DNA from: an uncultured bacterium
Lineage (GTDB): Bacteria; Verrucomicrobiota; Kiritimatiellia; RFP12; UBA1067
Direction of reading: 5' to 3'
DNA: 64,000 bases
NCBI GenBank assembly: GCA_902799385.1
Contig: CADCAK010000001.1
Coordinates: 30,670-94,669 of the forward strand
Shown: positions 1 through 55,127 of the stretch, one piece after another
Layout: each line of letters starts with the position of its first letter
How positions within the stretch are numbered: the stretch's first letter is position 1
Translations under genes and position numbers: made by a program
Notes under the pieces: model-generated
Told to the model about the DNA's origin: nothing
Seen by the model: only the letters and a program-made list of their open reading frames with translations
The model's database searches: none

Positions 1-8
1 GGTGTGAT

Positions 9-1235
9 GTGTTTCATTTGACCAAGGGTGGTGATTTTTGGAAAAAGATTGAGAAGCAGATACGTGAATGTACATGTAAATTCTTACCGGTAATGACAAG
101 GGTCTCAAACAGTCGTGAAGGGGTTATGCAGGAGATTGCAGTAGCAAAGAGTGTGGGCAAGAGTCTAAATGACAACGATTTCATCATTCCTCTTCGGATT
201 GATCCAAATTTGGCATTTGGCGATTTTGATCCACGATTAATTACTTGTAATGGGGTTGATTTTACGACTTCCTGGGCAGAAGGTTTTGCTGAGCTGATAA
301 AAAATCTCAATGAACTTAAATGCCCGAAAAATGGAGATATGTCTGATGGTGCTGCAATCTATGAACGTACGATACTTGGAAAATTTAGTACTGTAGAGCG
401 TGAAGAAGTTTTTGACTCGAATTGGTTTTTGATGACAAATCTTCCTTTGACGATAAACTTTTGTCCTCTAAAAGGCGATGGGAAAATGGGCGAATGGGAT
501 TTTCCTGTGTTGCAGTACAAGAATCATTTTGTCTCGTTTGTAGATAGAGATGGGATGCCATCAGAAATATGTCAATTGCTGGTTGCTGATGTGACCCCGA
601 TTAAGTTCAACATCAAAGATTTCTTGAGGGCAAATAAAGATTGTGAGTTTATAAAATACGGATCATTTAAATGGTTGGTTATTGGACTTCTTGCAAAGGT
701 CTTTGATCTGAGCTTGCGAAATCAGTTCGGCGTCAGTACCAAGAAGATGTCGAATAGGCAAATGGCCTTTTTCTACCAAACAGGTGTTTTGGAAAAGAAC
801 AAAAAGGACCGAATAGCATTAGTTGGAAAACATAAAAGCTTGAAATGGCATTTTGCAGTTTCAGGGAATGTTAGACTGTTTCCCGCCCCTATGATTCAAT
901 TCAAGACGCATGTATTATTTTCAAAAAATGGATTTGATGTTAATCTTGATGACCATACTTCTCATGTCGCGAGACGGTCACTTGGTAAACGATGGTGGAA
1001 CAAAGAGTGGCATTCTAGATTAATGGCATTTGTGTCTACTTTGGTTAACTCACCTGATGGAGTAATAATGCTACAAGAAGGGGTTCAATTGCCTGTTGCG
1101 TTAAACTCCAAGCCTGTTCAATTTAAATCCAGAGTTGCATATGATGAGCCAGGGTCAGAGGCCAACTTGGAAGATGCCCTCATTGATGATGTGGATGATG
1201 AGTTAATGACAACGGAATCTGAGGAGGATGATTAA
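9..1235 (+). CDS. 5'-truncated gene; C-terminal end of a TIR-like domain followed by an APAZ-like domain (partner of short pAgo; SPARTA-type TIR-APAZ)
   Basis: ORF runs off the window start. N-terminal visible part (KFLPVMTRVSNSREGVMQEIAVAK..FIIPLRID) resembles the distal helices/strands of a TIR domain, followed by ~350 aa. It overlaps by 8 nt and is translationally coupled to a MID-PIWI short Argonaute gene, the canonical SPARTA arrangement. Confidence 0.5.
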   Translation: MFHLTKGGDFWKKIEKQIRECTCKFLPVMTRVSNSREGVMQEIAVAKSVGKSLNDNDFIIPLRIDPNLAFGDFDPRLITCNGVDFTTSWAEGFAELIKNLNELKCPKNGDMSDGAAIYERTILGKFSTVEREEVFDSNWFLMTNLPLTINFCPLKGDGKMGEWDFPVLQYKNHFVSFVDRDGMPSEICQLLVADVTPIKFNIKDFLRANKDCEFIKYGSFKWLVIGLLAKVFDLSLRNQFGVSTKKMSNRQMAFFYQTGVLEKNKKDRIALVGKHKSLKWHFAVSGNVRLFPAPMIQFKTHVLFSKNGFDVNLDDHTSHVARRSLGKRWWNKEWHSRLMAFVSTLVNSPDGVIMLQEGVQLPVALNSKPVQFKSRVAYDEPGSEANLEDALIDDVDDELMTTESEEDD

Positions 1236-2769
1236 TATGTTATCACTTCCGATTGAGTACATTGAAGAGCCAAAGATTGTCTTTGGGCATGGACAGCGAA
1301 TGTGTGATCCGCGTGACGGATTGTCCTTCTTCGGTCCGATAGAGAATGGTCCGCTTGAGATAAGAAGCGGTGTCGTTGGTTCTAGCAATGCCTTAAGAAT
1401 ATTCAAGTCATATATTGAGAGAATTCGTAGGCCAGTTTATAATGCAAATACGATAACGAGGCCATTTTTCCCAGGTTTTGAATCTGTATTCAATTGTAAA
1501 TGGAATACAAACACGATTTTGTTTAAAGAAGTTACCAAAGAAAGTGTGATGGCCGCTTTGGCTCAGCAAAATAGGAACATTCGGACATATGATGCGGTAA
1601 CGCTTTTCTTGAACCCGATTCTTAGGGCGGGGGATGAAGATTCCAGTGTTAATATGTGGTTTGTTATTGTTCCAGATGAGATATATCAATACTGCCGCCC
1701 AAAATCAGCAGCGCCAAACGAATTAGAGCTTCGTAAACCGTTGCTGACTAAACGAGAAGCCAGTAAATTCGTGCCGGAGAATTGGCTTTTCGCTGAAATG
1801 CGGAAAGAGGATGAGTTGAAGCAGCTTGAGCAAAAAAAGTATTTGTATGACGCCCAATTCCATGATCAGTTTAAGGCACGATTGTTAGAGCGGCAAATAC
1901 CTACGCAAATTATACGCGAAAGCACGTTGGATTGGCAGAACTATGTGAATTCAAAGGGAAAGCCAATCAGAAACTATTCTGCAATTGAAGGTCATCTGGC
2001 TTGGACGTTATCCACGACTGTATATTACAAGGCAGGTGGTAAGCCTTGGCAGCTTTCAGATGTGAGACCAGGTGTGTGCTATCTAGGCCTTGTATATAAG
2101 AAATATGAGTATTCGGCCAACGAGCGTTATGCATGCTGCGCGGCACAGATGTTTTTAAATAATGGCGACGGCACTATTTTTAAGGGTGAGCTTGGCCCAT
2201 GGTACAATCCTAAATCTGGGGAATTTCATCTGCAGACGAAAGCGGCTAGGTCATTATTGCAAAAAGCGGTTGAGTCATATCGTGAAACGACTGGGAATTA
2301 TCCCAAAGAATTATTTATACATGCGCGAACCCATTTCAACAACGAAGAATGGTCGGCATTTTTGGACGTCGTTCCCACAGGGACAAGAATCGTTGGCATT
2401 ACCATAGACCCGAAACCGATATTAAAGTTATATAGGTTGGATAGTCGATATCCAATTATGCGAGGGATGTTACTTAAGCATGATGAGAGGCGTGCGTTGT
2501 TATGGACGAAGGGGTTTGTTCCAAGAATCCAAACCGCATTGGGCTTGGAAACACCGTCGCCATTAGATATTCGAATTGACAAGGGAGATGCCGATATCGA
2601 TGTAGTTGTCCGAGATATACTTGCATTAACGAAATTGAATTATAATGCTTGTTTGTATGGTGATGGTTTGCCTGTGACTTTGCGTTTTGCCGATAAGATT
2701 GGGAATATCCTCACGGCAACGGCGGAGCAAACCACTTGCCCTCCCTTGTCATTCAAATTTTACATCTAA
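1228..2769 (+). CDS. short prokaryotic Argonaute (MID + catalytically inactive PIWI)
   Basis: 513 aa. MID-like nucleotide pocket region (..TVYYKAGGKPWQL..). PIWI C-terminus (..GDGLPVTLRFADKIGNILTA) resembles pAgo C-terminal anchoring motifs. No obvious DEDX tetrad. Start overlaps the upstream APAZ gene stop. Confidence 0.6.
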   Translation: MINMLSLPIEYIEEPKIVFGHGQRMCDPRDGLSFFGPIENGPLEIRSGVVGSSNALRIFKSYIERIRRPVYNANTITRPFFPGFESVFNCKWNTNTILFKEVTKESVMAALAQQNRNIRTYDAVTLFLNPILRAGDEDSSVNMWFVIVPDEIYQYCRPKSAAPNELELRKPLLTKREASKFVPENWLFAEMRKEDELKQLEQKKYLYDAQFHDQFKARLLERQIPTQIIRESTLDWQNYVNSKGKPIRNYSAIEGHLAWTLSTTVYYKAGGKPWQLSDVRPGVCYLGLVYKKYEYSANERYACCAAQMFLNNGDGTIFKGELGPWYNPKSGEFHLQTKAARSLLQKAVESYRETTGNYPKELFIHARTHFNNEEWSAFLDVVPTGTRIVGITIDPKPILKLYRLDSRYPIMRGMLLKHDERRALLWTKGFVPRIQTALGLETPSPLDIRIDKGDADIDVVVRDILALTKLNYNACLYGDGLPVTLRFADKIGNILTATAEQTTCPPLSFKFYI

Positions 2770-2778
2770 GGTGCTGCC

Positions 2779-4035
2779 ATGATGAATAGCTCATATAGGA
2801 TGACTGAAGTTGGGCTTCTCCCTGAGGATTGGGATGCAAAGCGGTTTTCAGAGTGCTTCACTCTGGTTCGGAATAACACTTATGCTCGTGAGTGCCTGAC
2901 CGATCATCCCGGTTCGGTGGCGAATGTCCATTATGGAGACGTGCTGATCAAGTACGGAGCCGTTCTTGACTTCGCGAAGAATGCTGTGCCTTACCTTAAG
3001 TCCGATGTGAAACCGAATAAGGATATGCTGAGAGATGGGGATCTGGTCTTTGCCGATACGGCGGAGGACGAGGCGGTTGGTAAGGCTGTTGAGGTACAGG
3101 GGTTGAAGTCTCGCATGGCGGTTGCGGGATTACATACTGTCGCAAGCCGCCCTCATGATGGTTTGTTTGCGCAACGGTATCTTGGCTATTACATCAATTC
3201 TGCAGCTTACCACAACCAGTTGCTGCCTTTGATCACTGGCACGAAAGTTTCATCCGTTTCTAGGGCAGGTTTTCTGGCAACATACGTGGCCATACCGCCA
3301 AAGAGTGAGCAGCGGCGGATAGCGGGGGCGTTGTCGGATGTCGATGAGTTGATTTCGGCGTTGGGGAAACTCATTGAGAAAAAGCGCAACATCAAGACCG
3401 GCGCGATGCAAGAACTGCTCACCGGCAAAACCCGCCTCCCCGGCTTCGGTGGCAAGTGGGTGGAGAAGAGGTTGGGTGATTGGGGGATGCTTATTCGAGA
3501 AACAGAGAATCCTCTGGAGTTCCCTGATAAACTTTTTGTTGAATATAGTATGCCCGCTTTTGATGCGGGGAAGACACCACAAATAGTGATTGGCAAAAGC
3601 ATGTTAAGTAGTCGCACAAAGATACATGGTGAGGTTCTTTTATTCAACAAGCTAAATGTTCGACAGCGACGAATTTGGCATGTTGAATTATGCCCTGATA
3701 ATGCGATTTGCTCATCGGAGTTTCTACCTTACTATTCTGACACCATCGACCTTCGGCTGCTAGCTTATGCGCTTGACACAGAACAAAGTACTAAACATTT
3801 TATTGATGTGTCTAAAGGCACATCAAACAGCCAAAAACGCATATCTCCGCAAGAGTTTGAAGATTTTAGAGTGATGTTGCCCCCCACTCTCCCCGAGCAG
3901 CGCGCGATTGCGGCGGTGCTAACAGACATCGACGCGGAGATCGCGGCGCTTGAGGCCGACCGTGCGAAATACGAGCGCATCAAATCCGGCATGATGCAGG
4001 AACTGTTGACGGGCAAGACGAGATTGAAGCCATGA
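2779..4035 (+). CDS. hsdS: type I restriction-modification specificity subunit HsdS
   Basis: Two target-recognition halves, each ending in the conserved HsdS linker EQRRIA..L..D..I..L....K.(A)MQELLTGKTRL (present twice). Confidence 0.9.
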   Translation: MMNSSYRMTEVGLLPEDWDAKRFSECFTLVRNNTYARECLTDHPGSVANVHYGDVLIKYGAVLDFAKNAVPYLKSDVKPNKDMLRDGDLVFADTAEDEAVGKAVEVQGLKSRMAVAGLHTVASRPHDGLFAQRYLGYYINSAAYHNQLLPLITGTKVSSVSRAGFLATYVAIPPKSEQRRIAGALSDVDELISALGKLIEKKRNIKTGAMQELLTGKTRLPGFGGKWVEKRLGDWGMLIRETENPLEFPDKLFVEYSMPAFDAGKTPQIVIGKSMLSSRTKIHGEVLLFNKLNVRQRRIWHVELCPDNAICSSEFLPYYSDTIDLRLLAYALDTEQSTKHFIDVSKGTSNSQKRISPQEFEDFRVMLPPTLPEQRAIAAVLTDIDAEIAALEADRAKYERIKSGMMQELLTGKTRLKP

Positions 4036-11249: not shown

Positions 11250-11492
11250 TTGCAATCCGTTTACAAGCAGTCGTACGAACTACAACGACCGATTGTTGCC
11301 GATATGTGCGCAAACGCCGATAACGTCAGCGAAGATGAATTGGCGCATTGTTTTGATCGCGTGCTGGACATTTCATATACAGACTACGGCATGAGGCTTT
11401 TCAACAAATTGTGCAGGGCTTTCAAAGCAAGATATCCAGTTTGTGTGACGGATTATATAAAAATCCAAAAGGAGATTTATGGGGACGATTAA
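11250..11492 (+). CDS. small hypothetical protein (80 aa from TTG; 62 aa if from ATG 11304)
   Basis: ORF with protein-like composition directly upstream of the AlbA_2 gene. No recognisable domain. Confidence 0.3.
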   Translation: MQSVYKQSYELQRPIVADMCANADNVSEDELAHCFDRVLDISYTDYGMRLFNKLCRAFKARYPVCVTDYIKIQKEIYGDD

Positions 11493-11631: not shown

Positions 11632-13134
11632 ATGAAGCGAGACGAAAACCAGACGGTCGAGTACAAGGAGTCCTGGCACGAGAAGTACCTGGAGTGGATC
11701 TGCGGCTACGCGAACGCCAAGGGCGGGACGCTGTACATCGGCATAGAGGACGGAACCAAGAAGCCCGTCGGCGTCAGGAATCCCAACAAGCTGATGGAGG
11801 ACATCCCCAACTCCATACGCAACACGATGGGCATCGTGGCCGACGTCGCTTTGCTCAAGAAGCAGGGCAAGGATGTTATACGTATTAAGGTTGCGGCAAG
11901 CGCCTTCCCCGTCAGCTATCAGGGACGCTTCCACTATCGGACGGGATCGGTCAAGATGCTGCTGACAGGCCCGGCCCTTACGCAGTTCCTGATGGAGAAG
12001 TCAGGACAGCAATGGGACTGCATATCATGCTTCGGAGGACATCGTGCGTCCGATTTCACTTTTATTGCGCTCAAGAACCTCTATGAAAAGGCGAGTGGGT
12101 CGAAATTGACAAAGGAGGACATGCTTTCCTTTGGCCTTGTCACAGAGGCGGGCGTCATGACCAATACTGGCGCGCTGCTGGCCGACGAGTCGCCGATTCG
12201 ACATTCCCGCGTTTTCTGCACACGCTGGAACGGACTCGACATGACGGCAGGCGTTATGGATGCTGCCGACGACCAGGAATATAGTGGCGGACTTCTACAG
12301 TTGCTCAAATATGCAGAGGACTTTGTCCGCCTCCACTCCCGCCGCGCGTGGCACAAGCGTCCGACAGACCGCGTGAACTTCCGCGAGTATCCCGAACGCT
12401 CTGTTCAGGAGATGCTCATCAACGGACTCGTTCACCGCGACTACCTTGAGACAGGTAGCGAAGTCCATGTTGATATCTTCGACGATCGAATGGAAATAAC
12501 CTCCCCAGGCGGTATGCCGGGCGACCGCAAGGTTCAGGAGTATCCGAACATTCGGCGGATTCCGTCGCGTCGCCGCAATAAGTGCCTTGCGGATATGTTT
12601 GAACGGCTCGATCTCATGGAACGCAAGGGCAGCGGGTTCAAGAAGCTCAACGAGGACTACGAGAAACTGTCGGTCAACCTTGGGAAACGCATGCCCGTCC
12701 TTGAGTCCGAGAGTGACTACTTTCGCGTTACACTGCCGAATCTTCTCTATGGATTCACAGACGAACAGCTCGTCGCAGCCGTCGACAACTCGTCATACGG
12801 AGTGCCGAAGAGTGAGACGCTATCACTCGCGACCCACCATGATACCCACCATGATGCCCACCATGATACCCACCATGATGTGTTGCCGCTTAAACCAAAT
12901 GAAACCAAGCTTTTGAAGGTGCTGTCATTACAAAGAGAACTCAGCGCCACCGACTTGCGTAAGGCTATGAAACTTAGGAATGCGCCGGACTTTAGAGAGC
13001 GCTATCTCCGGCCGCTTTCTCGCGACGGATACATTGAGTTCACATTGCCGAACGCTAAGAAATCCAAACTTCAGAAGTATCGGCTGACGGACAAAGGACG
13101 TGCCGCGCTGTCGGCAAATACGTATAAGTCATAA
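11632..13134 (+). CDS. AlbA_2 (Schlafen-like) + HATPase_c_4 ATP-binding transcriptional regulator-like protein
   Basis: N-terminal AlbA_2 motif ESWHEKYLEWICGYANAKGGTLYIGIEDGTKKPVGV. C-terminal HATPase_c_4 region LINGLVHRDY..GSEVHVDIFDDRMEITSPGG. C-terminal HTH. AAGGAG RBS before ATG 11632. Confidence 0.8.
   Translation: MKRDENQTVEYKESWHEKYLEWICGYANAKGGTLYIGIEDGTKKPVGVRNPNKLMEDIPNSIRNTMGIVADVALLKKQGKDVIRIKVAASAFPVSYQGRFHYRTGSVKMLLTGPALTQFLMEKSGQQWDCISCFGGHRASDFTFIALKNLYEKASGSKLTKEDMLSFGLVTEAGVMTNTGALLADESPIRHSRVFCTRWNGLDMTAGVMDAADDQEYSGGLLQLLKYAEDFVRLHSRRAWHKRPTDRVNFREYPERSVQEMLINGLVHRDYLETGSEVHVDIFDDRMEITSPGGMPGDRKVQEYPNIRRIPSRRRNKCLADMFERLDLMERKGSGFKKLNEDYEKLSVNLGKRMPVLESESDYFRVTLPNLLYGFTDEQLVAAVDNSSYGVPKSETLSLATHHDTHHDAHHDTHHDVLPLKPNETKLLKVLSLQRELSATDLRKAMKLRNAPDFRERYLRPLSRDGYIEFTLPNAKKSKLQKYRLTDKGRAALSANTYKS
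12833..12880 (+). repeat. 4 x 12-bp tandem repeat (CCCACCATGATR) encoding a His-rich HHDTHHDAHHDTHHD tract inside the AlbA_2 gene
   Basis: Direct reading of sequence. In frame, near the C-terminus. Confidence 0.75.
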
Positions 13135-13189: not shown

Positions 13190-13335
13190 GGAGGTTGCTA
13201 AAAAGGCGGAAGAGGTTGCTAAAAAGGCGGAAACTGCGGAAAGTGCGCAGGCAGGGGCAGAAAGTAAGCAGACAGGGGCGGAAAATGCGCAGACAGGGGC
13301 AGAAAGTAAGCAGACAGGGGCGGAAAGTGCGCAGA
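13190..13335 (+). repeat. tandem 21-bp repeat array (2 x GAGGTTGCTAAAAAGGCGGAA, then 4 x CAGACAGGGGCRGAAARTRMG)
   Basis: Direct reading. The units are multiples of 3 and are open in the frame of the downstream HTH ORF (7-aa repeats AESKQTG/AENAQTG), but no ATG/GTG/TTG start precedes them. Confidence 0.7.
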
Positions 13336-16046: not shown

Positions 16047-17039
16047 ATGAAGAAGATCGAATACATTCCGAAGTTTACGGTTAGCGGCAAGGCGATGCGG
16101 CTCATTATGGAGATTGCCGCCGCATTAGAACGATACAAAATCGTGATGGAGGGGTCTGATGGCGTGCGGCTCAGAAAGCTCAATCACATTCGTACGATTC
16201 GTGGGACGACGGCCATCGAGGGAAACACGCTGACCGAGGAGCAGATCACAGCCGTGCTGGCGGGGAAGCGCGTGGTGGCAACGCGGCGCGAAATTGACGA
16301 AGTGAAAGGTGCCCATCGCGCCTATGCGAAGATTGAGTCGTTCAATGCGTATTCGGTTAAGGATCTCTTAAAGGCGCACGCGTTGATGACGAAGGGGCTT
16401 GTTGAGAAGCCGGGCGAATTCCGCAAGTGTGCCGTGGGGGTGATGAATGGCGCGGGTGAAGTCGTGCATCTTGCTCCGCGTTTTGAACTCGTTCCTGGGC
16501 TGATGGATGATTTGTTTGCGTGGCTTGCCGATTCAGAAGAGCCAGTGCTTATAAAGAGTTGCGTCTTTCACTGGTGCTTCGAGGACATTCATCCATTTCC
16601 AGACGGCAATGGGCGCACTGGACGCCTTTGGCAGACCGTGTTGCTCGGCTCGTGGAATCCGCTCTTTTACGGCGCGCCAATTGAGAACATCGTATGGGCG
16701 CATCAGTCGGAGTATTATGCAGCGATACGGGCGGTTGAAGAGCACGACATGGACATCGCTCCGTTCATTGAGTTCATGCTTGACAAGATTCTTCGGACAC
16801 TGAAGGCCAAGGGTGAAGCGTATGAGGCAGGGGAAGAAAGTAGGGTTAAGAGTAGGGATAAAAGTAGGGATAAGGTGTTGTGCCTTTTGCGCAGGCAGCC
16901 TGATTTGACCCAAGCAGAGCTTGCTAATGCGTTGGGACTGACGGTAAAAGCGATTGAGAAGATCATTCGTCAGTTGAGAGATGCCAATCTCATAAAGCGC
17001 GAGGGCGGCAAGAAATTCGGACGCTGGATTGTGGCGTAG
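16047..17039 (+). CDS. fic: Fic family protein (class II, N-terminal inhibitory helix) with C-terminal HTH
   Basis: Fic motif HPFPDGNGRTGR. Intramolecular inhibitory (S/T)xxxE(G/N) motif TAIEGN near the N-terminus. C-terminal winged-HTH (QAELANALGLTVKAIEKIIRQL). Confidence 0.9.
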   Translation: MKKIEYIPKFTVSGKAMRLIMEIAAALERYKIVMEGSDGVRLRKLNHIRTIRGTTAIEGNTLTEEQITAVLAGKRVVATRREIDEVKGAHRAYAKIESFNAYSVKDLLKAHALMTKGLVEKPGEFRKCAVGVMNGAGEVVHLAPRFELVPGLMDDLFAWLADSEEPVLIKSCVFHWCFEDIHPFPDGNGRTGRLWQTVLLGSWNPLFYGAPIENIVWAHQSEYYAAIRAVEEHDMDIAPFIEFMLDKILRTLKAKGEAYEAGEESRVKSRDKSRDKVLCLLRRQPDLTQAELANALGLTVKAIEKIIRQLRDANLIKREGGKKFGRWIVA

Positions 17040-38375: not shown

Positions 38376-40940
38376 ATGGTAAAGTCCGGCATAACTCAAG
38401 ACGAGGTGATCTCGTGGGGCGGCGAAGACGTCTTCAACAAGGCGTTGCCCATTGTGACATCCGGCGACGTACACGATGTCGCCTACAACGACGAGACGCT
38501 TGAGATCAGCGGCAAGATCGAGCAGCCGAGCGGATGGGACATGCCTGTCTCGTTCTTCCTGAAGCCCGGCGGCCGCATCGAGTCGCATTGCCCGTGCGAC
38601 ACGAATAGGCGCTTCGGCATGGTGTGCCAGCATGTCGTCGCCGTTGGCTATGCGCTCGTCGTCAGCGAGATGGACGACATCGAGGAAGAGAAGCCGCGCG
38701 GCGTGCGCGCTGAGGAGCCGGACGAGCCGCAGGAGGAAGAGGACTTCATCGAAGTCGAGACGAAGCCGAAGTTCTCGGCGTTTGTCGCCGGTTCTCGTGC
38801 GTCTCTCTCAATAGAGATCGACGCGCACTACGGCGAGATCGAGTTCCCGGTCTGCTCGGTGCAGAGCCCGCGGACAGTCTACCTTCCAGATCCCGACGAT
38901 CCGCTCGTTAGGCGCGTGCGCTCGATGAAGACGGAGCGCGAGGCGGTGAAGGCCGTCGAGAAGTGGGGCTTTTCCCCTGGGTACAACGACGGTGATCTGC
39001 GGCTTTACATCACCGACCCGCAGAAGGTGCTCAACTTCCTCGGCGCAGGGCTTCCCGCGCTAAGGCGCAAGGGCTGGCGCATAGACCTCGCCGACAAGCT
39101 CATGGAGCTTACGGACGCGATGCCGTCGGTCGTGCCCGTCGTCACTGTGCGCGACGCGCCGAACGGCGCGTTCGATGTCTCGTATGCGTTTGACGCGATG
39201 GGCCACGATGTCTCGCCGGTCGAGATACAGGCCGCGCTGAACCGGGGCGACGGCTACATCATGAAGGACGGGGCCGTCGTCCTTCTCGACAACTCAGCAA
39301 TTGAGTCTATGCACGGCGTCTTCCGCGACTGCGCGCCGTCCCAGAACGGCGCGGCGGCCGGGTGGTTCCGCGTCGATTCCGTCCATGCGCCGTACGTAAA
39401 GGCGTCGCTCGATCTTCTCGACTGCATCGACCTCGATGATTCCGCCGCGCGACGCTGGCGCGAGACTGCGGCGGCGAGGAACCGCGACTCCGGCGCGAAG
39501 TTCGAGCCGGTCGCGCTCGGGCCGCTCGACAATGTCTTGAGGCCCTACCAGAAGCAGGGCGTATACTGGATGCGCTTCCTCGAGAATGCGGGGCTTTCTG
39601 GGCTTCTCGCGGACGAGATGGGGCTTGGAAAGACGCTCCAGACTTTGACTTGGCTTTCGTTACCGAGAGCGGGAAGAGGGAATAGGGAAGAGGGAATAGG
39701 GAAGAGGGAAGAGAGAAGAGAGAAGAGGGAGAGTCCCTCGCTCATTGTTTGTCCAACGTCGCTTGTGCGCAATTGGGAAGCGGAGGCGAAGAAGTTTACG
39801 CCGTGGCTGAAGGTCCTCGTCGTGTCCGGGCCGGATCGCGCTGACACTTTCGGGCTTATCGACTCGTCTGATGTCGTCGTCACTTCCTACGCGCTTCTCC
39901 AGCGCGACTTCGAGGACGCGTACCTCGGGCACAAATTCTCCGCCGTCGTGCTTGACGAGGCGCAGCACATCAAGAACAGGCAGACGAAGAACGCGAAGTC
40001 TGTGAAGATGCTCGACGCCGAGCGGCGTCTCGTCCTCACCGGCACGCCTGTCGAGAACTCTGTCGCGGACGTCTGGTCGATCTTCGACTTCCTCATGCCC
40101 GACTACCTTGGCGACTACGAGACGTTCAAGGCGAATTTCGAGGAGCCGATCGCCGACGGCGGCGCGGCGGGAGAGGAGGCGCAGGCGCGGCTTAAGCGCA
40201 AGCTGCATCCTTTCATCATGCGTCGCCTCAAGAAGACGGTTGCTAAGGACCTTCCCGACAAGATTGTGAAAGTCTCCTACTGCCCGATGTCGGAGGACTC
40301 GCAGCGCGAATACAACGAGGCGCTTGCGAAGACGCGGCGCCAGGCGGGAGACGCGATACGCGAGAAGGGCTTTGCGAAGTCGAAGTTCGAGATCCTTGCG
40401 ATGCTCATGAAGCTGCGGCAGATCGCCTCGCGCGCGAAGCTCGAGGCGTTCCTGGAGCAGCTTGAGAGCGCGATAGAGGGCGGGCACAAGATACTCGTCT
40501 TCTCGCAGTTCGTGAAGATGCTCGGGACTATAGCCGAGGAACTGAAGGAACGTGGCGTTCCGTTCTGCTATCTCGACGGCTCGACGAAGGATCGCCTTGG
40601 CGAGTGCAACCGATTCAACCGCTCGCCCGAGATACCGGTGTTCCTCATTTCGCTCATGGCTGGCGGCACGGGGCTCAACCTCACGGGCGCAGACATGGTG
40701 ATGCACTACGATCCGTGGTGGAACCCGGCGGTAGAGGATCAGGCGACTGACCGCGCCCATCGAATCGGGCAGAAGAAGACGGTGTACGTCATGAAGATGA
40801 TTGCGTCGGGTTCAATTGAAGAGAAGGTTCTCGCGCTTCAGCGCCGCAAGCAGGCGGTGATTTCCGCTACAGTCTCTACGACCGACGAGGCGGTGATGGA
40901 GCGTCTCACTGCCGACGATCTCGCCGCGCTCTTGTCGTAG
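38376..40940 (+). CDS. SNF2-family helicase with N-terminal SWIM zinc finger
   Basis: SWIM CPCDTNRRFGMVCQHVVAV. SNF2 motif I LLADEMGLGKTLQT, motif II VLDEAQHIKN, helicase-C (..GGTGLNLTGADMVMHYDPWWNPAVEDQATDRAHRIGQ). Confidence 0.85.
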   Translation: MVKSGITQDEVISWGGEDVFNKALPIVTSGDVHDVAYNDETLEISGKIEQPSGWDMPVSFFLKPGGRIESHCPCDTNRRFGMVCQHVVAVGYALVVSEMDDIEEEKPRGVRAEEPDEPQEEEDFIEVETKPKFSAFVAGSRASLSIEIDAHYGEIEFPVCSVQSPRTVYLPDPDDPLVRRVRSMKTEREAVKAVEKWGFSPGYNDGDLRLYITDPQKVLNFLGAGLPALRRKGWRIDLADKLMELTDAMPSVVPVVTVRDAPNGAFDVSYAFDAMGHDVSPVEIQAALNRGDGYIMKDGAVVLLDNSAIESMHGVFRDCAPSQNGAAAGWFRVDSVHAPYVKASLDLLDCIDLDDSAARRWRETAAARNRDSGAKFEPVALGPLDNVLRPYQKQGVYWMRFLENAGLSGLLADEMGLGKTLQTLTWLSLPRAGRGNREEGIGKREERREKRESPSLIVCPTSLVRNWEAEAKKFTPWLKVLVVSGPDRADTFGLIDSSDVVVTSYALLQRDFEDAYLGHKFSAVVLDEAQHIKNRQTKNAKSVKMLDAERRLVLTGTPVENSVADVWSIFDFLMPDYLGDYETFKANFEEPIADGGAAGEEAQARLKRKLHPFIMRRLKKTVAKDLPDKIVKVSYCPMSEDSQREYNEALAKTRRQAGDAIREKGFAKSKFEILAMLMKLRQIASRAKLEAFLEQLESAIEGGHKILVFSQFVKMLGTIAEELKERGVPFCYLDGSTKDRLGECNRFNRSPEIPVFLISLMAGGTGLNLTGADMVMHYDPWWNPAVEDQATDRAHRIGQKKTVYVMKMIASGSIEEKVLALQRRKQAVISATVSTTDEAVMERLTADDLAALLS
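39667..39735 (+). repeat. purine-rich GGGAAGAGGGAATAGGGAAGAG... microsatellite-like insertion inside the helicase ORF (encodes RAGRGNREEGIGKREERREKRE)
   Basis: Direct reading. Sits between SNF2 motif I and Ia, in frame. Confidence 0.7.
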
Positions 40941-43252: not shown

Positions 43253-43732
43253 ATGTCTATTCTCATCGGTTTCCTCTATGTGGTAGAAGTTCTTGTCTGC
43301 ATTCTTCTGGCAATGGTCGTAATGCTTCAGAAGCCGAAGGAAGGCGGCCTAGGCGGCGCTTTTGGCGGCGGGATGCTTGAGGCTTCGCTCGGTGCCGACG
43401 CTGGCAACGTCCTCATCCGCACCACGGCCATTCTCGGCGCAATCTTCCTTGTCAACACTCTTGTGCTTGCGCGTCTCACTTCGACCGTCCACTCCCGCAG
43501 CCTGATGGCTCGCGAGGCGGAGCCTGTGGCCGAGACTGCCCCTGCGCTTCCTGCGGCACCGGAGCTTCCGGCTGCGGCACCCGAACTTCCTGCGGCTCCC
43601 GAAGCGCCTGCGCCTGTCGCGCCAGCGCCCGCCGCACCTGCACCCGCACCTGCGCCCGCCGCACCCGCACCCGCGCCTGCGCCTGTCGCACCCGCACCCG
43701 CGCCTGCGCCTGTCGCGCCTGACGCGAAGTGA
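43253..43732 (+). CDS. secG: preprotein translocase subunit SecG with Pro/Ala-rich C-terminal extension
   Basis: SecG core MLQKPKEGGLGGAFGGG and a second TM. ~70-aa tail of (PA/PE/PV) repeats from imperfect GC-rich DNA repeats at 43545-43725. Confidence 0.7.
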   Translation: MSILIGFLYVVEVLVCILLAMVVMLQKPKEGGLGGAFGGGMLEASLGADAGNVLIRTTAILGAIFLVNTLVLARLTSTVHSRSLMAREAEPVAETAPALPAAPELPAAAPELPAAPEAPAPVAPAPAAPAPAPAPAAPAPAPAPVAPAPAPAPVAPDAK

Positions 43733-44791: not shown

Positions 44792-46102
44792 ATGAGCGAT
44801 TCCCGGCAACGGCGCAAGTCCCTCGATTTCCTGCAAATGCTCGCGGCGAGGCGACGCTTCGGCATGAGGCCGTCCCTCGACGCGATCAGCGGCACATGTG
44901 CCGCGCTCGGCGATCCTCAGAAAAAGCTACGTGCGATTCATGTCGCAGGCACGAACGGGAAAGGCGCGGTCTGCGCGATGGTCGACGCGTGCCTCAGGGC
45001 CGATGGCCTTAAGACTTGCAGATACACGTCGCCCCATCTCGTAAGGGTAAACGAGCGGTTTTTCGTGGACGGAAGACCCGTCGACGACGCGACTCTCGAA
45101 CGCGCGGCGGATAAGGTCTTTCACGCCGATTCCGACACAAACCCGCAACTTACCTTCTTCGAGGCGCTGACGGCCGTCGCGTTCATCGCCTTCACCGAGG
45201 CGAAGTGCGACTACGCCGTTCTCGAGACGGGGCTTGGCGGCCGGCTTGACGCGACGAACATCTGCGTGCCGGAGATTTGCGTAATAACGAAGATCGGGCT
45301 CGACCACTGCGACTGGCTTGGCGACACCGTCGAGAAGATTGCGGCGGAAAAGGCGGGGATAATAAAGAAGGGCGTGCCCATTGTCCTTGGGAAGAACGAT
45401 ACTGAGGTCGTTGCGGTAGTGAAATCCCGCGCAAACGAGGTCGGCGCGCCATTCTTCTACGCGCCTGACATGGCGGACGAATCGGAAATTCCAGATGGCT
45501 TCTCCCTTGAAGGCGCGTTCAACCGCGAGAACGCCGTCACCGCTCTCGCAGCGCTTAAAGTCCTCAAGAAGGGCTCGCGTGACGGGCTCTTGGATGTCGT
45601 CTGGCCGGGGCGGTTCCAGAGGGTTGGGCGCTTCATCATAGACGGCGCGCACAATCCTCCGGCGGCCCGTGCGCTTGTCGCCGCGCTTCGTAAATACGCA
45701 CCTTTCGCGGGGTCTGTCCCCACGCTTATCGCCGGCTTTTGTGGCGACAAGGACGTTGGCGAGGTTCTCTCGATTCTCGCACCGCTGGTGACAAGGGGAT
45801 TTGCCGTCAAGACAAACAACCCGCGTTCGCTCTCCGCCGAGGAGACGGCGGCGAAAATGCGCGAGGCCGGTATCGACGCAGTTGCGTGTCCGTCGCTCAA
45901 AGAGGCGATCCGCAGGGCATCTCCCGCACCCGGCACTAGGCACCAGCGGCGGAGCCGCGCAAGCACCAGCGGCGGAGCCGCGCAAGCACCGCTCACCCTC
46001 ATTTGCGGTTCGCTGTTCCTCGCAGGCGAGGCGCTTGCCGAGCTTGGCGCCTTTCCGTGGCAGGCAGACCGTTTCGATGCGGCAGAAATCCTGAAGGTTT
46101 GA
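44792..46102 (+). CDS. folC: bifunctional folylpolyglutamate synthase/dihydrofolate synthase
   Basis: Mur-ligase P-loop HVAGTNGKG, DGAHNP. Contains a 2 x 23-bp tandem duplication at 45936-45981. Confidence 0.85.
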   Translation: MSDSRQRRKSLDFLQMLAARRRFGMRPSLDAISGTCAALGDPQKKLRAIHVAGTNGKGAVCAMVDACLRADGLKTCRYTSPHLVRVNERFFVDGRPVDDATLERAADKVFHADSDTNPQLTFFEALTAVAFIAFTEAKCDYAVLETGLGGRLDATNICVPEICVITKIGLDHCDWLGDTVEKIAAEKAGIIKKGVPIVLGKNDTEVVAVVKSRANEVGAPFFYAPDMADESEIPDGFSLEGAFNRENAVTALAALKVLKKGSRDGLLDVVWPGRFQRVGRFIIDGAHNPPAARALVAALRKYAPFAGSVPTLIAGFCGDKDVGEVLSILAPLVTRGFAVKTNNPRSLSAEETAAKMREAGIDAVACPSLKEAIRRASPAPGTRHQRRSRASTSGGAAQAPLTLICGSLFLAGEALAELGAFPWQADRFDAAEILKV

Positions 46103-46116
46103 TATAATCTACGGCG

Positions 46117-47433
46117 ATGAAGAAGAAGAGAGGAACGCTCGCACTCGTCTCGCTCGGCTGCGCCAAGAACGCAGTTGACTTGCAGGTCATGGCCGGCAAT
46201 CTCCTGAAAGAGGGCTGGGCTCTTTCTCCCGATCCCGACTGTGCGGACGTCGTCATTGTCAACACCTGCTCCTTCATCGCATCGGCTCGCGAGGAGGCGG
46301 AGGCCGAGATACTTCGCGCGATTGAGCTCAAGAAAATCGGCCGCTACGGAAAGGTCGTCGTCGCGGGATGCTATCCGCAGAGATATCCCGAGCTGAAGGG
46401 CGCGTTCCCCGGCGTCGACGAGTGGGGGGGCGTGCCGAAGGGCTGGATCGAGCCGAAGATGCCTGCGCTTCGCCTCACCGGAAAGGCGTTTGCATACCTC
46501 AAGATCGCCGAGGGCTGCGCGCACCGCTGCGCCTACTGCGCGATTCCGCTAATCCGCGGCAAGTACCGCTCGCGCCCGCTCAGGTCGATACTAAAGGAGG
46601 CGCGTTCGCTCGTTGCGACAGGGTGCCGCGAAATCAACGTCATAGCCCAGGACCCGATGCTCTGGCGCGAGGGGAAGAAGTCGCTTCCCGATCTCCTCTG
46701 GGCGCTCGACAAGATTCCTGGCGACTTCTGGGTGCGCGTCCTCTACAGCTACCCGAGCGAGATATCCGACGATTTCCTCGTATGGATGCTCACGTCGAAA
46801 CACGCCGTCCGCTACATCGATGTGCCGCTCCAGCACACCGTTCCCGAAGTCCTCGAGAAGATGAACCGCAAGGCCGCGATAGACGATTCGCTTGCGGCAG
46901 CCGAGTTCCTGCGCGGCGTCGTTCCAGGGGTCACGCTGAGGACGACGATAATGACCGGTTTCCCCGGCGAGACGGAATCGCGCTTCAGGAAGCTCATGGC
47001 CGACTTGCGGCGCATGCAGTTCGACCACCTCGGCTGCTTCGCCTATTCGCCCGAGAAGGGCACGAAGGGCGCGCTGCTTGGAGGGCGTCCTTCGCGCGCG
47101 GTCGCGCTCGCCCGAGAGAAGGCGGTGATGGGGCTTGCGAAGGAGATTTGGAGAGCTCGCTCCAAGAGGTTGGTCGGAAAGACTTTCCGCGCGCTCGTCG
47201 TCGCGCCTGGCGTGGCGCGGCTTGAGTCGCAGGCGCCAGATGTTGACGGAGTGACGTATATTACGGGGAACGGGGAACGTAACCGCCCCTTGCGGGGGTT
47301 TGCGACCCATGGGGAAGCAAACACGCCGAGCGAAGCGAGTGCCGAGGGAATGGGTAACGGGCATGTCGGCGAATTCGTCGATGTCCGCATAGAGAAGGTC
47401 GAGGGCTTCGACTTCAGGGGAAAGGTCGTTTGA
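46117..47433 (+). CDS. rimO: ribosomal protein S12 methylthiotransferase RimO (MiaB-like radical SAM)
   Basis: MTTase N-terminus (LGCAKN..VNTCSF). Radical-SAM CAHRCAYCAIP. TRAM-like C-terminus with a Gly/Asn/Glu-rich insertion (GNGERN...GMGNG). Confidence 0.85.
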   Translation: MKKKRGTLALVSLGCAKNAVDLQVMAGNLLKEGWALSPDPDCADVVIVNTCSFIASAREEAEAEILRAIELKKIGRYGKVVVAGCYPQRYPELKGAFPGVDEWGGVPKGWIEPKMPALRLTGKAFAYLKIAEGCAHRCAYCAIPLIRGKYRSRPLRSILKEARSLVATGCREINVIAQDPMLWREGKKSLPDLLWALDKIPGDFWVRVLYSYPSEISDDFLVWMLTSKHAVRYIDVPLQHTVPEVLEKMNRKAAIDDSLAAAEFLRGVVPGVTLRTTIMTGFPGETESRFRKLMADLRRMQFDHLGCFAYSPEKGTKGALLGGRPSRAVALAREKAVMGLAKEIWRARSKRLVGKTFRALVVAPGVARLESQAPDVDGVTYITGNGERNRPLRGFATHGEANTPSEASAEGMGNGHVGEFVDVRIEKVEGFDFRGKVV

Positions 47434-53339: not shown

Positions 53340-55127
53340 TTAGCCAAGCGCGGCCTTGATTGCCTCAAGAGCCGCGTCTGGCGCGACGATCTGCATCTTC
53401 GACTTGTCCTCATCGCGGCGCTTGATCTCGACGCCGCCGTTGGCAAGCCCCTTCGCGCCGACGACGACGCGGACAGGGAAGCCGATCAGGTCGGCATCCT
53501 TGAACTTGACGCCGGGACGCTCCGCGCGGTCGTCGACGATTACGTCGATTCCGGCCGCCTCAAGCGCAGACTCGAGATCGTCTGCGACCTTCGTTACGTC
53601 TGGCTTGTCGGGATCGAGGTTCTCGACGATGACCTGGTACGGCGCGACAGACGCGGGCCAGATTATGCCGTCCTTGTCGTGGCATTGCTCGATGACCGCC
53701 TGGAGCGTGCGGGAAACGCCGACGCCGTAGCAGCCCATGATCATCACATGGTCTTCGAGCTTGTCGTTCTTGTAGACGGCGTTGAACGCGGCGGAATACT
53801 TCGTACCGAGCTTAAAGACCTGCCCGACTTCGATGCCGCGCTTGATTGCCATGGGCTTGCCGCACTTCGCGCAGATGTCGCCGTCCTTCACGATTACGAG
53901 ATCGGCGTAGTCCGCGTCCGCGATCTTCGCGTCGCGCGCGAGGTCAACGTTCTTGAGGTGGAAGTCGTCCTTGTTCGCGCCGACGATGCGTCCCTTCGCG
54001 CCCTTGAGCGCGATGTCAGCGACAATCCTGAGCGACGCGTCCGCAGGAGCGACGGGGCCGACGAAGCCCGCGTTCGCGCCGGTCGCCTTAAGGACGGTGC
54101 CGAAATCGGCAAGCGCGACGGACTTCGCGCCGAGGAAGCGCTTTAGCTTCACCTCGTTCACGTCGCGATCACCCTGAACGCACACCATAACCGGCTTGCC
54201 GTCGGCAACATAAACGAGAGACTTGACGAAACGGTCGGCGGGAAGGCCGAGGAAAGAGGCGACCTCTTCGATCGTCTTGGCGTTGGGCGTCGCGACCTCT
54301 TCGCAGGCGTCTCCGTTCCCCATTCCCGCTTCCCCGTTCCCCGTTCCCCATTCCCACCCCTCTAGCGACCGCTCGCGCGGCTCGCTTCGCTCGGGGGATA
54401 CGTTCCCCATCTTCCGTTCCGCCTTCTCGAGATTCGCAGCGTAGCCGCAGCCGTCGCAGAACGCGATGCCGTCTTCGCCAGCGTCGGCAAGGACGTGGAA
54501 CTCGTGCGTCATCGAATCGCCCATGTCGCCGCCGTCGGCCTGCACGGGAACGGCCTTGAGCCCGCAGCGCGCGTAGATGCGCTCGTAGGCGTGGTACATG
54601 TTCCAGTAGCTCTTGTCCGCGCCCTCGGCGTCAGTGTCGAAGGAGTAGGCGTCCTTCATGAGAAATTCCTTGGAGCGCATGAGCCCGAACCTCGGGCGCG
54701 TCTCGTCGCGGAACTTCCACTGGATCTGGTAGATCGTGACGGGCAGCTGGCGATAGGAGCTGACGAGCGACTTCGCGAGGTCGGTGAAGACCTCCTCGGC
54801 GGTGGGGCCGAGCGCGAACTCGTGCTCGCCTCTATCGCGGAGCTTGAACATGTTCGGGCCCATCGTGTCCCAGCGGCCCGTGGTGCGCCAGAGCTCGGCG
54901 GGCTGGAGTATCGGCGAGACGATTTCGAGCGCGCCCGCGCGGTCCATCTCATCGCGGACGATCTCCATGATTTTCTTGAGCGAGCGCATGCCGAGCGGCA
55001 GGTACGCGTAGAGCCCGCCCGCGACCTTGCGCGCGAGCCCCGCGCGCATCAGGAGCCTGTGAGAGTCGATTTCGGCGTCGCCGGGATTCTCCCGGAGCGT
55101 CTGTATGAGAGATTTCGTCCATTTCAT
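53340..55127 (-). CDS. proS: proline--tRNA ligase
   Basis: Class II aaRS motifs, C-terminal anticodon-binding domain. Contains a Gly/Asn/Glu-rich insertion WEWGTGNGEAGMGNGD from a GGGAAYGGGGAAC repeat at 54300-54360. Start at MKWTKSLIQTL. Confidence 0.9.
   Translation of the reverse strand: MKWTKSLIQTLRENPGDAEIDSHRLLMRAGLARKVAGGLYAYLPLGMRSLKKIMEIVRDEMDRAGALEIVSPILQPAELWRTTGRWDTMGPNMFKLRDRGEHEFALGPTAEEVFTDLAKSLVSSYRQLPVTIYQIQWKFRDETRPRFGLMRSKEFLMKDAYSFDTDAEGADKSYWNMYHAYERIYARCGLKAVPVQADGGDMGDSMTHEFHVLADAGEDGIAFCDGCGYAANLEKAERKMGNVSPERSEPRERSLEGWEWGTGNGEAGMGNGDACEEVATPNAKTIEEVASFLGLPADRFVKSLVYVADGKPVMVCVQGDRDVNEVKLKRFLGAKSVALADFGTVLKATGANAGFVGPVAPADASLRIVADIALKGAKGRIVGANKDDFHLKNVDLARDAKIADADYADLVIVKDGDICAKCGKPMAIKRGIEVGQVFKLGTKYSAAFNAVYKNDKLEDHVMIMGCYGVGVSRTLQAVIEQCHDKDGIIWPASVAPYQVIVENLDPDKPDVTKVADDLESALEAAGIDVIVDDRAERPGVKFKDADLIGFPVRVVVGAKGLANGGVEIKRRDEDKSKMQIVAPDAALEAIKAALG

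Follow-up and report, generated by a model that had tools for sequence, protein, structure and literature searches.

In-frame mini-elements and G-rich heptamer repeats are both already known in bacteria, as separate phenomena. The Rickettsia palindromic elements (RPEs), about 100-150 bp in length, are translated in a single frame into a peptide that is conserved (Ogata et al. 2000; reviewed in PMC10969869), and the QMITEs of Coxiella burnetii and other intragenic MITEs (miniature transposable elements with inverted repeats) make in-frame additions to proteins (PMC5896051; PMC10969869). Palindromic DNA is also spread as repetitive extragenic palindromes (REPs) and REPINs with their RAYT transposases, and as palindrome-associated elements derived from IS200/IS605 (PMC3116915; PMC3733652). 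The heptamers described in Xanthomonas and Nostoc, with units GGGNATC and GGGGA(C/T)T, show a strong bias towards non-coding DNA, and the coding strand has too few of them (Rehm et al. 2015; PMC4692102). Here we analyze a stretch of 64,000 nt from an uncultured Kiritimatiellae bacterium (positions 30,670 to 94,669 of contig CADCAK010000001.1; hereafter the window), whose named homologues assign it to Kiritimatiellae and in which three conserved genes, those for a SNF2-family helicase, RimO, and prolyl-tRNA synthetase (proS), carry G/A-rich tracts. We consider it probable that these tracts are sense-strand heptamer arrays generated by frame-filtered slippage, joined in proS and rimO by selfish, non-autonomous hairpin mini-elements. 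In the part of the literature that we covered, we found no report of both features combined, of any such system in Kiritimatiellae, or of coding-strand heptamer arrays forming seven-residue repeats in core enzymes.

Each tract lies on the sense strand and keeps the reading frame (39671-39730 in SNF2, 47263-47361 in rimO, and 54313-54408, minus strand, in proS; Table 1), at the places where an initial annotation of this DNA had reported them. What was then described as a 12-mer or generic purine microsatellite has, according to Tandem Repeats Finder, a period of 7; that annotation overlooked the period and the hairpin cores, and also that the proS and rimO inserts, read in different frames, match at the DNA level. 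The units, GGGGAAC/GGGAATG and GGGAAGA/GGGAATA, run head to tail with a tract of three to four G at all three sites, as in G-rich heptameric simple sequence repeats generally. The motif GGGAAYGGGGAA, with at most one mismatch, has eight matches in the window, all inside the three genes, against 0.60 expected, and none of 100 shuffles reached eight. A period-7 self-match scan of the 64 kb returned the SNF2 and proS arrays only, with zero in codon-shuffled controls. As 7 is not divisible by 3, the 21 nt of three units are read in all three phases and give a hydrophilic repeat of seven residues (GNGERGT or GKREEGR). The arrays also satisfy the four-G-tract motif rule for quadruplexes (G3N4 x4), and ViennaRNA predicts an RNA G-quadruplex in the SNF2 and proS arrays and none in rimO.

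Table 1. Host genes and repeat features of the window (coordinates in the window).
Feature	Coordinates	Strand	Basis and remarks
SWIM/SNF2-family helicase, host gene 1	38376-40940	+	854 aa; Pfam SNF2-rel_dom, Helicase_C, SNF2_assoc
Pure heptamer array GGGAAGA/GGGAATA, about 8.6 units, encodes GRGNREEGIGKREERREKRE	39671-39730	+	Tandem Repeats Finder (period 7, GGGAAGA x8.6); no hairpin core; motif I-Ia loop
rimO, host gene 2 (ribosomal protein S12 methylthiotransferase)	46117-47433	+	438 aa; Pfam UPF0004, Radical_SAM, TRAM_2; PDB 4JC0
Family B left heptamer flank (ACGGGGAACGGGGAACG)	47263-47279	+	Tandem Repeats Finder (period 7, GGGGAAC x2.4)
Family B hairpin core, 67 nt (TAACCGCCCCTTGCGGGGGTTTGCGACCCATGGGGAAGCAAACACGCCGAGCGAAGCGAGTGCCGAG), read as NRPLRGFATHGEANTPSEASAE	47280-47346	+	Copies 95-99% identical, with unrelated flanks
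Family B right heptamer flank (GGAATGGGTAACGGG, peptide GMGNG)	47347-47361	+	Sequence; GGGAAYGGGGAA match; contexts
proS, host gene 3	53340-55127	-	595 aa from MKWTKS; Pfam tRNA-synt_2b, tRNA_edit, HGTP_anticodon; PDB 5ZNJ, 2J3L
Right heptamer array GGGAATG/GGGGAAC, 6.1 units (WEWGTGNGEAGMGNG)	54313-54355	-	Tandem Repeats Finder (period 7, GGGGAAC/T x6.1); linker before editing domain
Family A hairpin core, 45 nt (TATCCCCCGAGCGAAGCGAGCCGCGCGAGCGGTCGCTAGAGGGGT), read as VSPERSEPRERSLEG	54356-54400	-	DNA alignment with P0001 and P0003
Family A left heptamer unit (GGGGAACG)	54401-54408	-	Sequence, DNA alignment, contexts

Comparison with homologues of solved structure (2J3L, 4JC0, and 1Z63) places the tracts in surface loops or linkers compatible with the fold, as had been proposed. 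In SNF2 the tract occupies a loop that joins helicase motifs I and Ia and is 16 aa shorter in 1Z63; in RimO it occupies a beta-turn of the TRAM domain that is short in 4JC0; and in the proS product, a bacterial-type prolyl-tRNA synthetase (ProRS) with an INS editing domain, it lies in the linker from the catalytic core to that domain, which is about 20 aa longer than in 2J3L. Alignments with 120 relatives per gene confirmed the insert positions for all three genes and showed them to be hypervariable, with many relatives lacking an insert and others carrying unrelated sequence. The initial annotation had allowed that orthologues might carry the same segments, which would make them ancestral; since many orthologues and the solved homologues lack them or have something different, they are not. 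An 827-aa form of the helicase, whose loop is hypervariable among orthologues, reads PR-ESLPALIV with no insert, and a 406-aa, array-free form of RimO reads VDCDEVGEF at the TRAM turn. The helicase has an orthologue, P0241, that is 97% identical to it, and other relatives have inserts of seven-residue periodicity built from GGGGAAC, GGGAAGA, GGGATGA, GGGATCA, GGGGACC, AACAGTG, or CCAACCA type units.

Array length differs between close strains, as expected of heptameric repeats, and it does so in steps that keep the frame. The SNF2 array of the closest relative (L001) is exactly 21 nt shorter than that of the window and otherwise equal; the proS genes of P0003 and P0001 differ by 21 nt, as part of a general variation of +/-21 nt among relatives; and RimO proteins of 422 and 429 aa differ by one seven-residue repeat. 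Along the neighbor-joining order of the rimO relatives, presence and absence switch among close relatives at two separate hot spots. The choice of units appears to be filtered as well. GGGAATA units in SNF2 are confined to phases that put TAG out of frame, every third unit of the sense-strand GGGATGA arrays is altered to TGG or AGA, and the perfect array of seven GGGATGA units is antisense; as judged from these sequences, stop-containing units are tolerated only out of phase.

The second hot spot of rimO lies in the radical-SAM domain (about 46660-46690 in the window, residues AQDPMLWREGKKSLPDLL), where the window has no array. Many rimO relatives have KGTGNREQGTE, KGKGKREEGRD, KGSGIGDQGSD, or an unrelated EVKVKGEGEQRTLHL insert there, and two of the arrays are located at L130 8794-8839 and L131 8851-8898. 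Units at this site tend to equal those at the TRAM turn of the same gene. In two rimO orthologues with 86% nucleotide identity, array lengths are equal at both hot spots and all units have changed together, being GGGAACA and GGGGAAC in one and GGGAAGA at both sites in the other, a whole-array change that, read from sequence comparison, is concerted evolution.

About 180 kb of Kiritimatiellae sequence contains 18 arrays, roughly one per 10 kb, from which we infer that arrays are enriched beyond the window. Seventeen of the 18 lie in genes, and the G-rich strand is the sense strand in 15 of these 17, a bias that, with about 10 independent sites behind it, is statistically insecure. The non-coding bias and coding-strand depletion expected of repeats of the kind surveyed by Rehm et al. 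(2015) are thus not seen in the Kiritimatiellae arrays. The simplest explanation of the sense-strand bias is peptide tolerance, because the G-rich strand encodes G/E/R/K/N and its complement L/F/P. Among the matches listed, GGGAANN x4 arrays are widespread, mainly in Cyanobacteria, Gemmatimonadota, Xanthomonadales, and Acidobacteriota, with one Kiritimatiellae and one Lentisphaerota contig besides, and outside Kiritimatiellae they are mostly not in long open reading frames (ORFs), in accordance with Rehm et al. (2015).

In proS and rimO the heptamers enclose something else. The purine-rich tract reported for proS is real, and its motifs border an inserted hairpin core on both sides; similarly, the RimO residues GNGERN..GMGNGH are present as reported, and instead of two microsatellites they represent a single composite element around a hairpin core. 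On their left the two cores have GGGGAACG followed by TAWCC in common and on their right CGAGCGAAGCGAG...GAGG, and the inserts as a whole share GGGGAACGTAWCC...CGAGCGAAGCGAG...GAGGG. Since they are alike although they are translated in different frames, their kinship is at the level of DNA and not of protein. We assign them to two families, both with heptamers on each side of a GC-rich, hairpin-capable palindromic core that contains CGAGCGAAGCGAG, the palindrome being a feature shared with RPEs: family A, with a 45-nt core and a canonical element of 69 nt, and family B, with a 67-nt core and a canonical element of 90 nt (range of elements 62-90 nt). Covariance models match the proS core with 89.5 bits and the rimO core with 112.7 bits, and the family A model also detects the family B copy (E 0.0095). 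Subfamilies of A keep an outer CCCC/GGGG stem around differing self-complementary inner segments, subfamilies B1 and B2 differ by three base pairs changed on both sides in compensatory fashion, and the fold z-score of A1, the commonest family A subfamily, is -2.6.

A metagenome scan with the pattern CGAGCGAAGCGAG-N(2-25)-GGGAAYGGG matched at least 120 loci. Among the 120 matches listed, 52 are copies of family A or B, falling into 35 clusters of unrelated flanks, with about 30 contexts for A and 15 for B, and about half are unrelated repeats that share the 13-mer; as CGAGCGAAGCGAG also occurs in such repeats, membership was assigned by full-core identity only. Alignments of the metagenome copies with the window match over 90-112 nt of element only, at 90-99% identity, with unrelated flanks; identity of the A and B copies to those of the window is put at 94-99%. 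In this respect, as small, non-coding, multi-copy sequences in unrelated contexts, the elements resemble classical MITEs. The initial annotation had proposed a lineage-specific insertion process, through slippage or a small in-frame mobile motif, and both halves of the proposal find support, the former in the 21-nt or seven-residue steps and the latter in about 35 independent sites. Independent assemblies from different samples contain the same arrays and elements. The copies lie mostly inside ORFs, in stop-free frames only, in both orientations, and in at least four combinations of frame and orientation; these frame counts are approximate, as the ORF-spanning heuristic mis-assigns strand in GC-rich DNA (window rimO included), whereas the Pfam-checked hosts are solid. 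Hosts with Pfam domains on either side of the element include a GH2 beta-galactosidase, CarA, MnmE (with two cores in tandem), NuoF, an alpha-L-fucosidase, GH95, and GH106, and in GH2 and CarA the copy is located between Pfam domains. Together with proS and rimO of the window, this amounts to in-frame insertion into many unrelated protein-coding genes, as in RPEs. Both 69 and 90 nt are multiples of three, and each element is open in four to five of the six frames.

The 13-mer itself was rejected as a specific marker, for it also adjoins a GGGAATG array of a Rhodanobacteraceae contig (L077) and is found in unrelated metagenome repeats. It is embedded in several unrelated palindromic repeat families of soil-type metagenomes (e.g., ATCCCGAGCGAAGCGAGGGAT ... 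ATCCCTCGCTTCGCTCGGGAT; loci L190, L198, L212, L216, and L144/L163/L184), which suggests a hairpin module used convergently or repeatedly. The GCGAAGC that it contains forms a very stable DNA mini-hairpin. A known RNA family was rejected as the identity of the cores, as no Rfam match was found at the gathering threshold or at E<=1, and carriage by phages was rejected after two scans of viral contigs that were without the element. Covariance models found no further A or B copies in the other approximately 146 kb of Kiritimatiellae loci, or in the window beyond the two known, a scarcity that fits recent, lineage-restricted activity.

The junctions and the filled and empty sites give some indication of how the cores enter. 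In 43 of the 45 contexts listed, the core is preceded by AACG (junction AACG/TA, usual preceding sequence GGGGAACGGGGAACG), and the two exceptions differ by a single base (AGCG/TA in L229, AATG/TA in L224); for family B, nearly all of the 15 contexts listed have the same left flank, with AACG at its end, before the core, the exceptions being single-base variants. The left flank, unlike the right one, was not imposed by the scan pattern. In proS, the core sits between heptamers 1 and 2, and in the alignment with P0001 and P0003 it is a clean 45-nt gap with the number of units unchanged. The target-site duplication of classical MITEs is therefore not seen, as window proS and the core-free P0001 (a single pair) have equal unit counts, and for the same reason heptamers as accumulated 7-bp target-site duplications or excision footprints were rejected for proS. 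Nor are there terminal inverted repeats, the other hallmark of MITEs: the ends are direct heptamers (GGGGAACG ... GGGAACGG), and the sole inverted repeat is the internal CCCC/GGGG stem. A hairpin, a fixed 5' junction sequence, and duplication-free insertion (in the one pair) are instead what is found in REP and IS200/IS605-type elements. A GTAG/CGTC tag at the end of the palindrome is not clear in the alignments, where CTAG occurs in A1 only, and no donor for the 45-nt proS core was found elsewhere in the 64-kb window. Further states of such sites include a 21-nt difference between the fucosidase-site elements of L196 and L215, a site in a SAM-methyltransferase gene where L129 has heptamers alone and L166 a complete family A element, and a 32-nt hairpin inside GGGGAAY units in the proS gene encoding P0046.

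These observations would be explained if slipped-strand mispairing made length variants of the arrays and selection removed those that break the frame. The elements could survive in coding DNA since their length is a multiple of three, most of their frames are open, and tolerant loops and linkers escape selection; if selection spares only such sites, the same loops would be struck repeatedly in different lineages. The cores might move as single-stranded hairpin DNA and insert just 3' of ...GGGGAACG without target duplication, perhaps through an HUH (Y1) transposase acting in trans, by analogy with IS200/IS605-derived or REP-type elements, and the heptamers might either travel with the element or serve as its landing pad. 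If a core were lost from between its direct heptamer flanks, a pure array like that of SNF2 would remain. Most likely the elements are selfish, and the encoded peptides are passengers and not adaptations.

Several points weigh against this combination of slippage and mobile hairpin elements. No autonomous partner was found, in the sense that 0.89 Mb of loci contain no pair of left and right ends separated by more than 130 nt, so that a long autonomous version was rejected. An IS200-like Y1_Tnp gene is present just downstream of SNF2 in the close relative L001 (12755-13576) and not in the window; it is flanked by an inverted pair of GGGGACAGACCCC hairpins and not by A or B cores, and a cognate Y1 (HUH) transposase with the same hairpins as our elements is thus not seen. 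The absence of target duplication relies on one filled/empty pair, the constancy of the right heptamer flank is partly ascertainment because the scan required it, the fold z-scores of subfamilies A2 and A3 are weak, and the link of the metagenome contigs to Kiritimatiellae is drawn from L166 (78.6% amino-acid identity) and from a shared REP. In addition, the SNF2 array is coreless, and many arrays of relatives use GGGAAGA, GGGATGA, GGGATCA, or AACAGTG units with no core seen. The proS array is common to the closest relatives (ProRS 93-96% identical) and its core is found in the window only, which favors cores entering existing arrays. The L001 RAYT/Y1 transposase was rejected as the driver, as its flanking REP GGGGACAGACCCC differs from the A and B cores and shows no consistent adjacency to arrays. 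This REP-like hairpin (context CGCGGGGACAGACCCCACGAAAG) recurs in the window (45709-45721), in relatives, and in element-bearing metagenome contigs (L001 12555-12567 and 13620-13632; L127, L148, L151, L217, and L247), with a RAYT/REP arrangement in L001.

The proS case bears directly on the order of events. It is possible, if short of our preferred explanation, that heptamers arise and grow by slippage alone and that the cores are secondary, homing into GGGGAAC arrays by site-specific insertion or by gene conversion through heptamer homology and creating none themselves. That the SNF2 array and most arrays in relatives are coreless is in line with this, as is the second core that L152 has inside an existing element, within its array; slippage has been named as the cause of the abundance of heptamer repeats (PMC4692102; PMC4679880), and the array-free sequence of rimO site 1, REGKK, is already similar to one unit. 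At the TRAM turn, however, the array-free state VDCDE is unlike the units, which argues that arrays are not built from local sequence, and in about 60% of family A copies, located in unrelated genes, the flanks are equally minimal (two units left, about 1.3 right), unexpected if the cores had entered pre-existing arrays of arbitrary size. The tendency of units to agree between two separate arrays of one gene, and to differ between related genomes, also speaks against arrays coming first. The proS case favors homing; the flanks, minimal and alike from copy to copy, and the units of the rimO turn, which do not stem from local sequence, favor seeding, in which transposition of the hairpin element would found heptamer arrays at new loci, the heptamers being both terminal repeats and preferred landing pads, and core loss would leave a slippage-prone array. 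We regard seeding in this full form as rather unlikely.

Selection for the inserts, as flexible or charged linkers that tune the enzymes or as G-quadruplex signals in DNA or mRNA, is improbable in our judgment. The quadruplex rule and the ViennaRNA predictions noted above are compatible with it, G-quadruplex formation was shown for the related Xanthomonas and Nostoc repeats (PMC4692102), and the excess of G-rich sense strands could be taken the same way; but peptide tolerance is the simplest account of that bias, and close relatives differ at one and the same loop in presence, length, unit, and even strand, with many having nothing there. The same element read in four to five frames or orientations also yields unrelated peptides, in hosts that are functionally unrelated. 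The linkers of ProRS and SNF2 proteins are often variable, and metagenome assemblies can mis-assemble repeats, so that one might think of ordinary ancestral low-complexity linkers or of assembly artefacts. We give this almost no weight, given the homologues and orthologues without the segments, the intact frame, the agreement of independent assemblies, and a period-7 DNA identity that crosses reading frames.

The heptamers of cyanobacteria known as short tandemly repeated repetitive sequences (STRRs), which Mazel et al. are said to have described in 1990, are reportedly tandem 7-nt G-tract repeats of the same kind. The small dispersed repeats (SDRs) of Nostoc punctiforme, reportedly described by Elhai et al. 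in 2008, are said to measure 21-27 nt, to be mainly intergenic, and often to be nested in other repeats, tandem heptamers included; they share with our elements the character of very small (<100 nt) mobile repeats, and our elements differ in being longer and in lying in ORFs. The likeness to RPEs, drawn from their description, is closer, as both are short, palindrome-containing, and non-autonomous, sit in frame in many unrelated housekeeping ORFs, are tolerated at the protein surface, and have no transposase identified. Unlike RPEs, to which no sequence homology is expected, the elements described here are 69-90 nt long, are read in several frames and both orientations, bear at both ends G-rich heptamer direct repeats that expand and contract, and reside in free-living or gut Kiritimatiellae. 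QMITEs are likewise non-autonomous and add in-frame segments to proteins, but they have terminal inverted repeats and usually target duplications, and neither was seen here. With REP and IS200/IS605 elements, ours share the GC-rich hairpin, the lack of target duplication (in one case), the constant 5' junction, and Y1 genes in relatives; in contrast to REPs and REPINs, they are not inverted doublets, have no clear GTAG/CGTC tag, and sit in ORFs where REPs are extragenic by definition, and the only RAYT seen has a different REP. As in Xanthomonas and Nostoc, the arrays are made of 7-nt units in tandem that contain a G3-4 tract, vary in copy number, and have the potential to form quadruplexes, but in Kiritimatiellae they are mostly genic, sense-strand, and in frame, and some enclose mobile hairpin cores.

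If our preferred explanation is right, Kiritimatiellae would be a second clear example, beyond Rickettsia and Coxiella, in which selfish mini-elements colonize the frames of core genes (an aminoacyl-tRNA synthetase, RimO, CarA, MnmE, and NuoF), with an activity high enough to leave near-identical copies at dozens of sites. It would join two classes of repeats that are usually kept apart, G-rich heptanucleotide microsatellites and hairpin mini-transposons, and it indicates that the coding strand can retain heptamer arrays, in the form of seven-residue repeats, contrary to what is found in Xanthomonas and Nostoc. In practical terms, the inserts inflate and diversify protein lengths in Kiritimatiellae metagenome-assembled genomes and can mislead orthology and domain annotation, and the arrays are hypervariable strain markers in steps of 21 nt and likely sites of assembly breaks. 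The natural filled and empty sites offer material for finding a possibly new transposition activity with a 7-nt-repeat target. Should seeding prove true, it would supply a mechanistic origin for heptanucleotide repeats, the most abundant long simple repeats in prokaryotes, would account for the cyanobacterial STRRs and the GGGAATC repeats of Xanthomonas, whose origin has been unexplained since 1990, and would represent a second, independent RPE-like system remodelling protein loops across a whole bacterial class.

Other repeats accompany these in the SNF2 loop and elsewhere. The SNF2 orthologue P0248 has GGTGCTT x2, a hairpin, and GGTGCAK x2 in the same loop, adjoining an array of about 5 octamers (CCCACCAA, translated as PTHQPTNPQTHQ; L252, about 11270-11480) that lies beside the hairpin core, so that non-7 periods and further core families also occupy this loop. 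In L128 (5500-5575), two arrays of opposite polarity, GGGAAGA-type and then its complement, lie 12 nt apart and in frame within a 1017-aa ORF (EEGKGKREKGRSADGQLLPSSLFLFPLG), forming an intragenic inverted array pair. GGGAAYN arrays of Gemmatimonadota and Cyanobacteria (L041 4852-4926; L034 2349-2554; L018) often come as two arrays in inverted orientation with a short spacer between them, so that heptamer arrays form the stems of a hairpin, unlike the direct-flank architecture in Kiritimatiellae. The only intergenic period-7 array in the Kiritimatiellae loci (L130 1847-1879) consists of about 4.7 AT-rich units, GGTTTAA, whereas the genic arrays are G-rich.

The remaining tandem repeats of the window, none of period 7, are ACCCACCATGAT x4 (12832-12879), 21- and 42-nt repeats in 2-4.6 copies (13191-13335), a GC-rich block with periods of 18, 21, and 27 nt (43547-43726), a perfect 23-nt repeat x2.2 (45940-45990), and AGTAGGGATAAG x3 (16839-16874). 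The G+C content of the window is 44% at 1-4000, 50-54% at 56-64 kb, and about 62% elsewhere, with a strong positive GC skew at both ends, and these low-G+C ends may be acquired islands.

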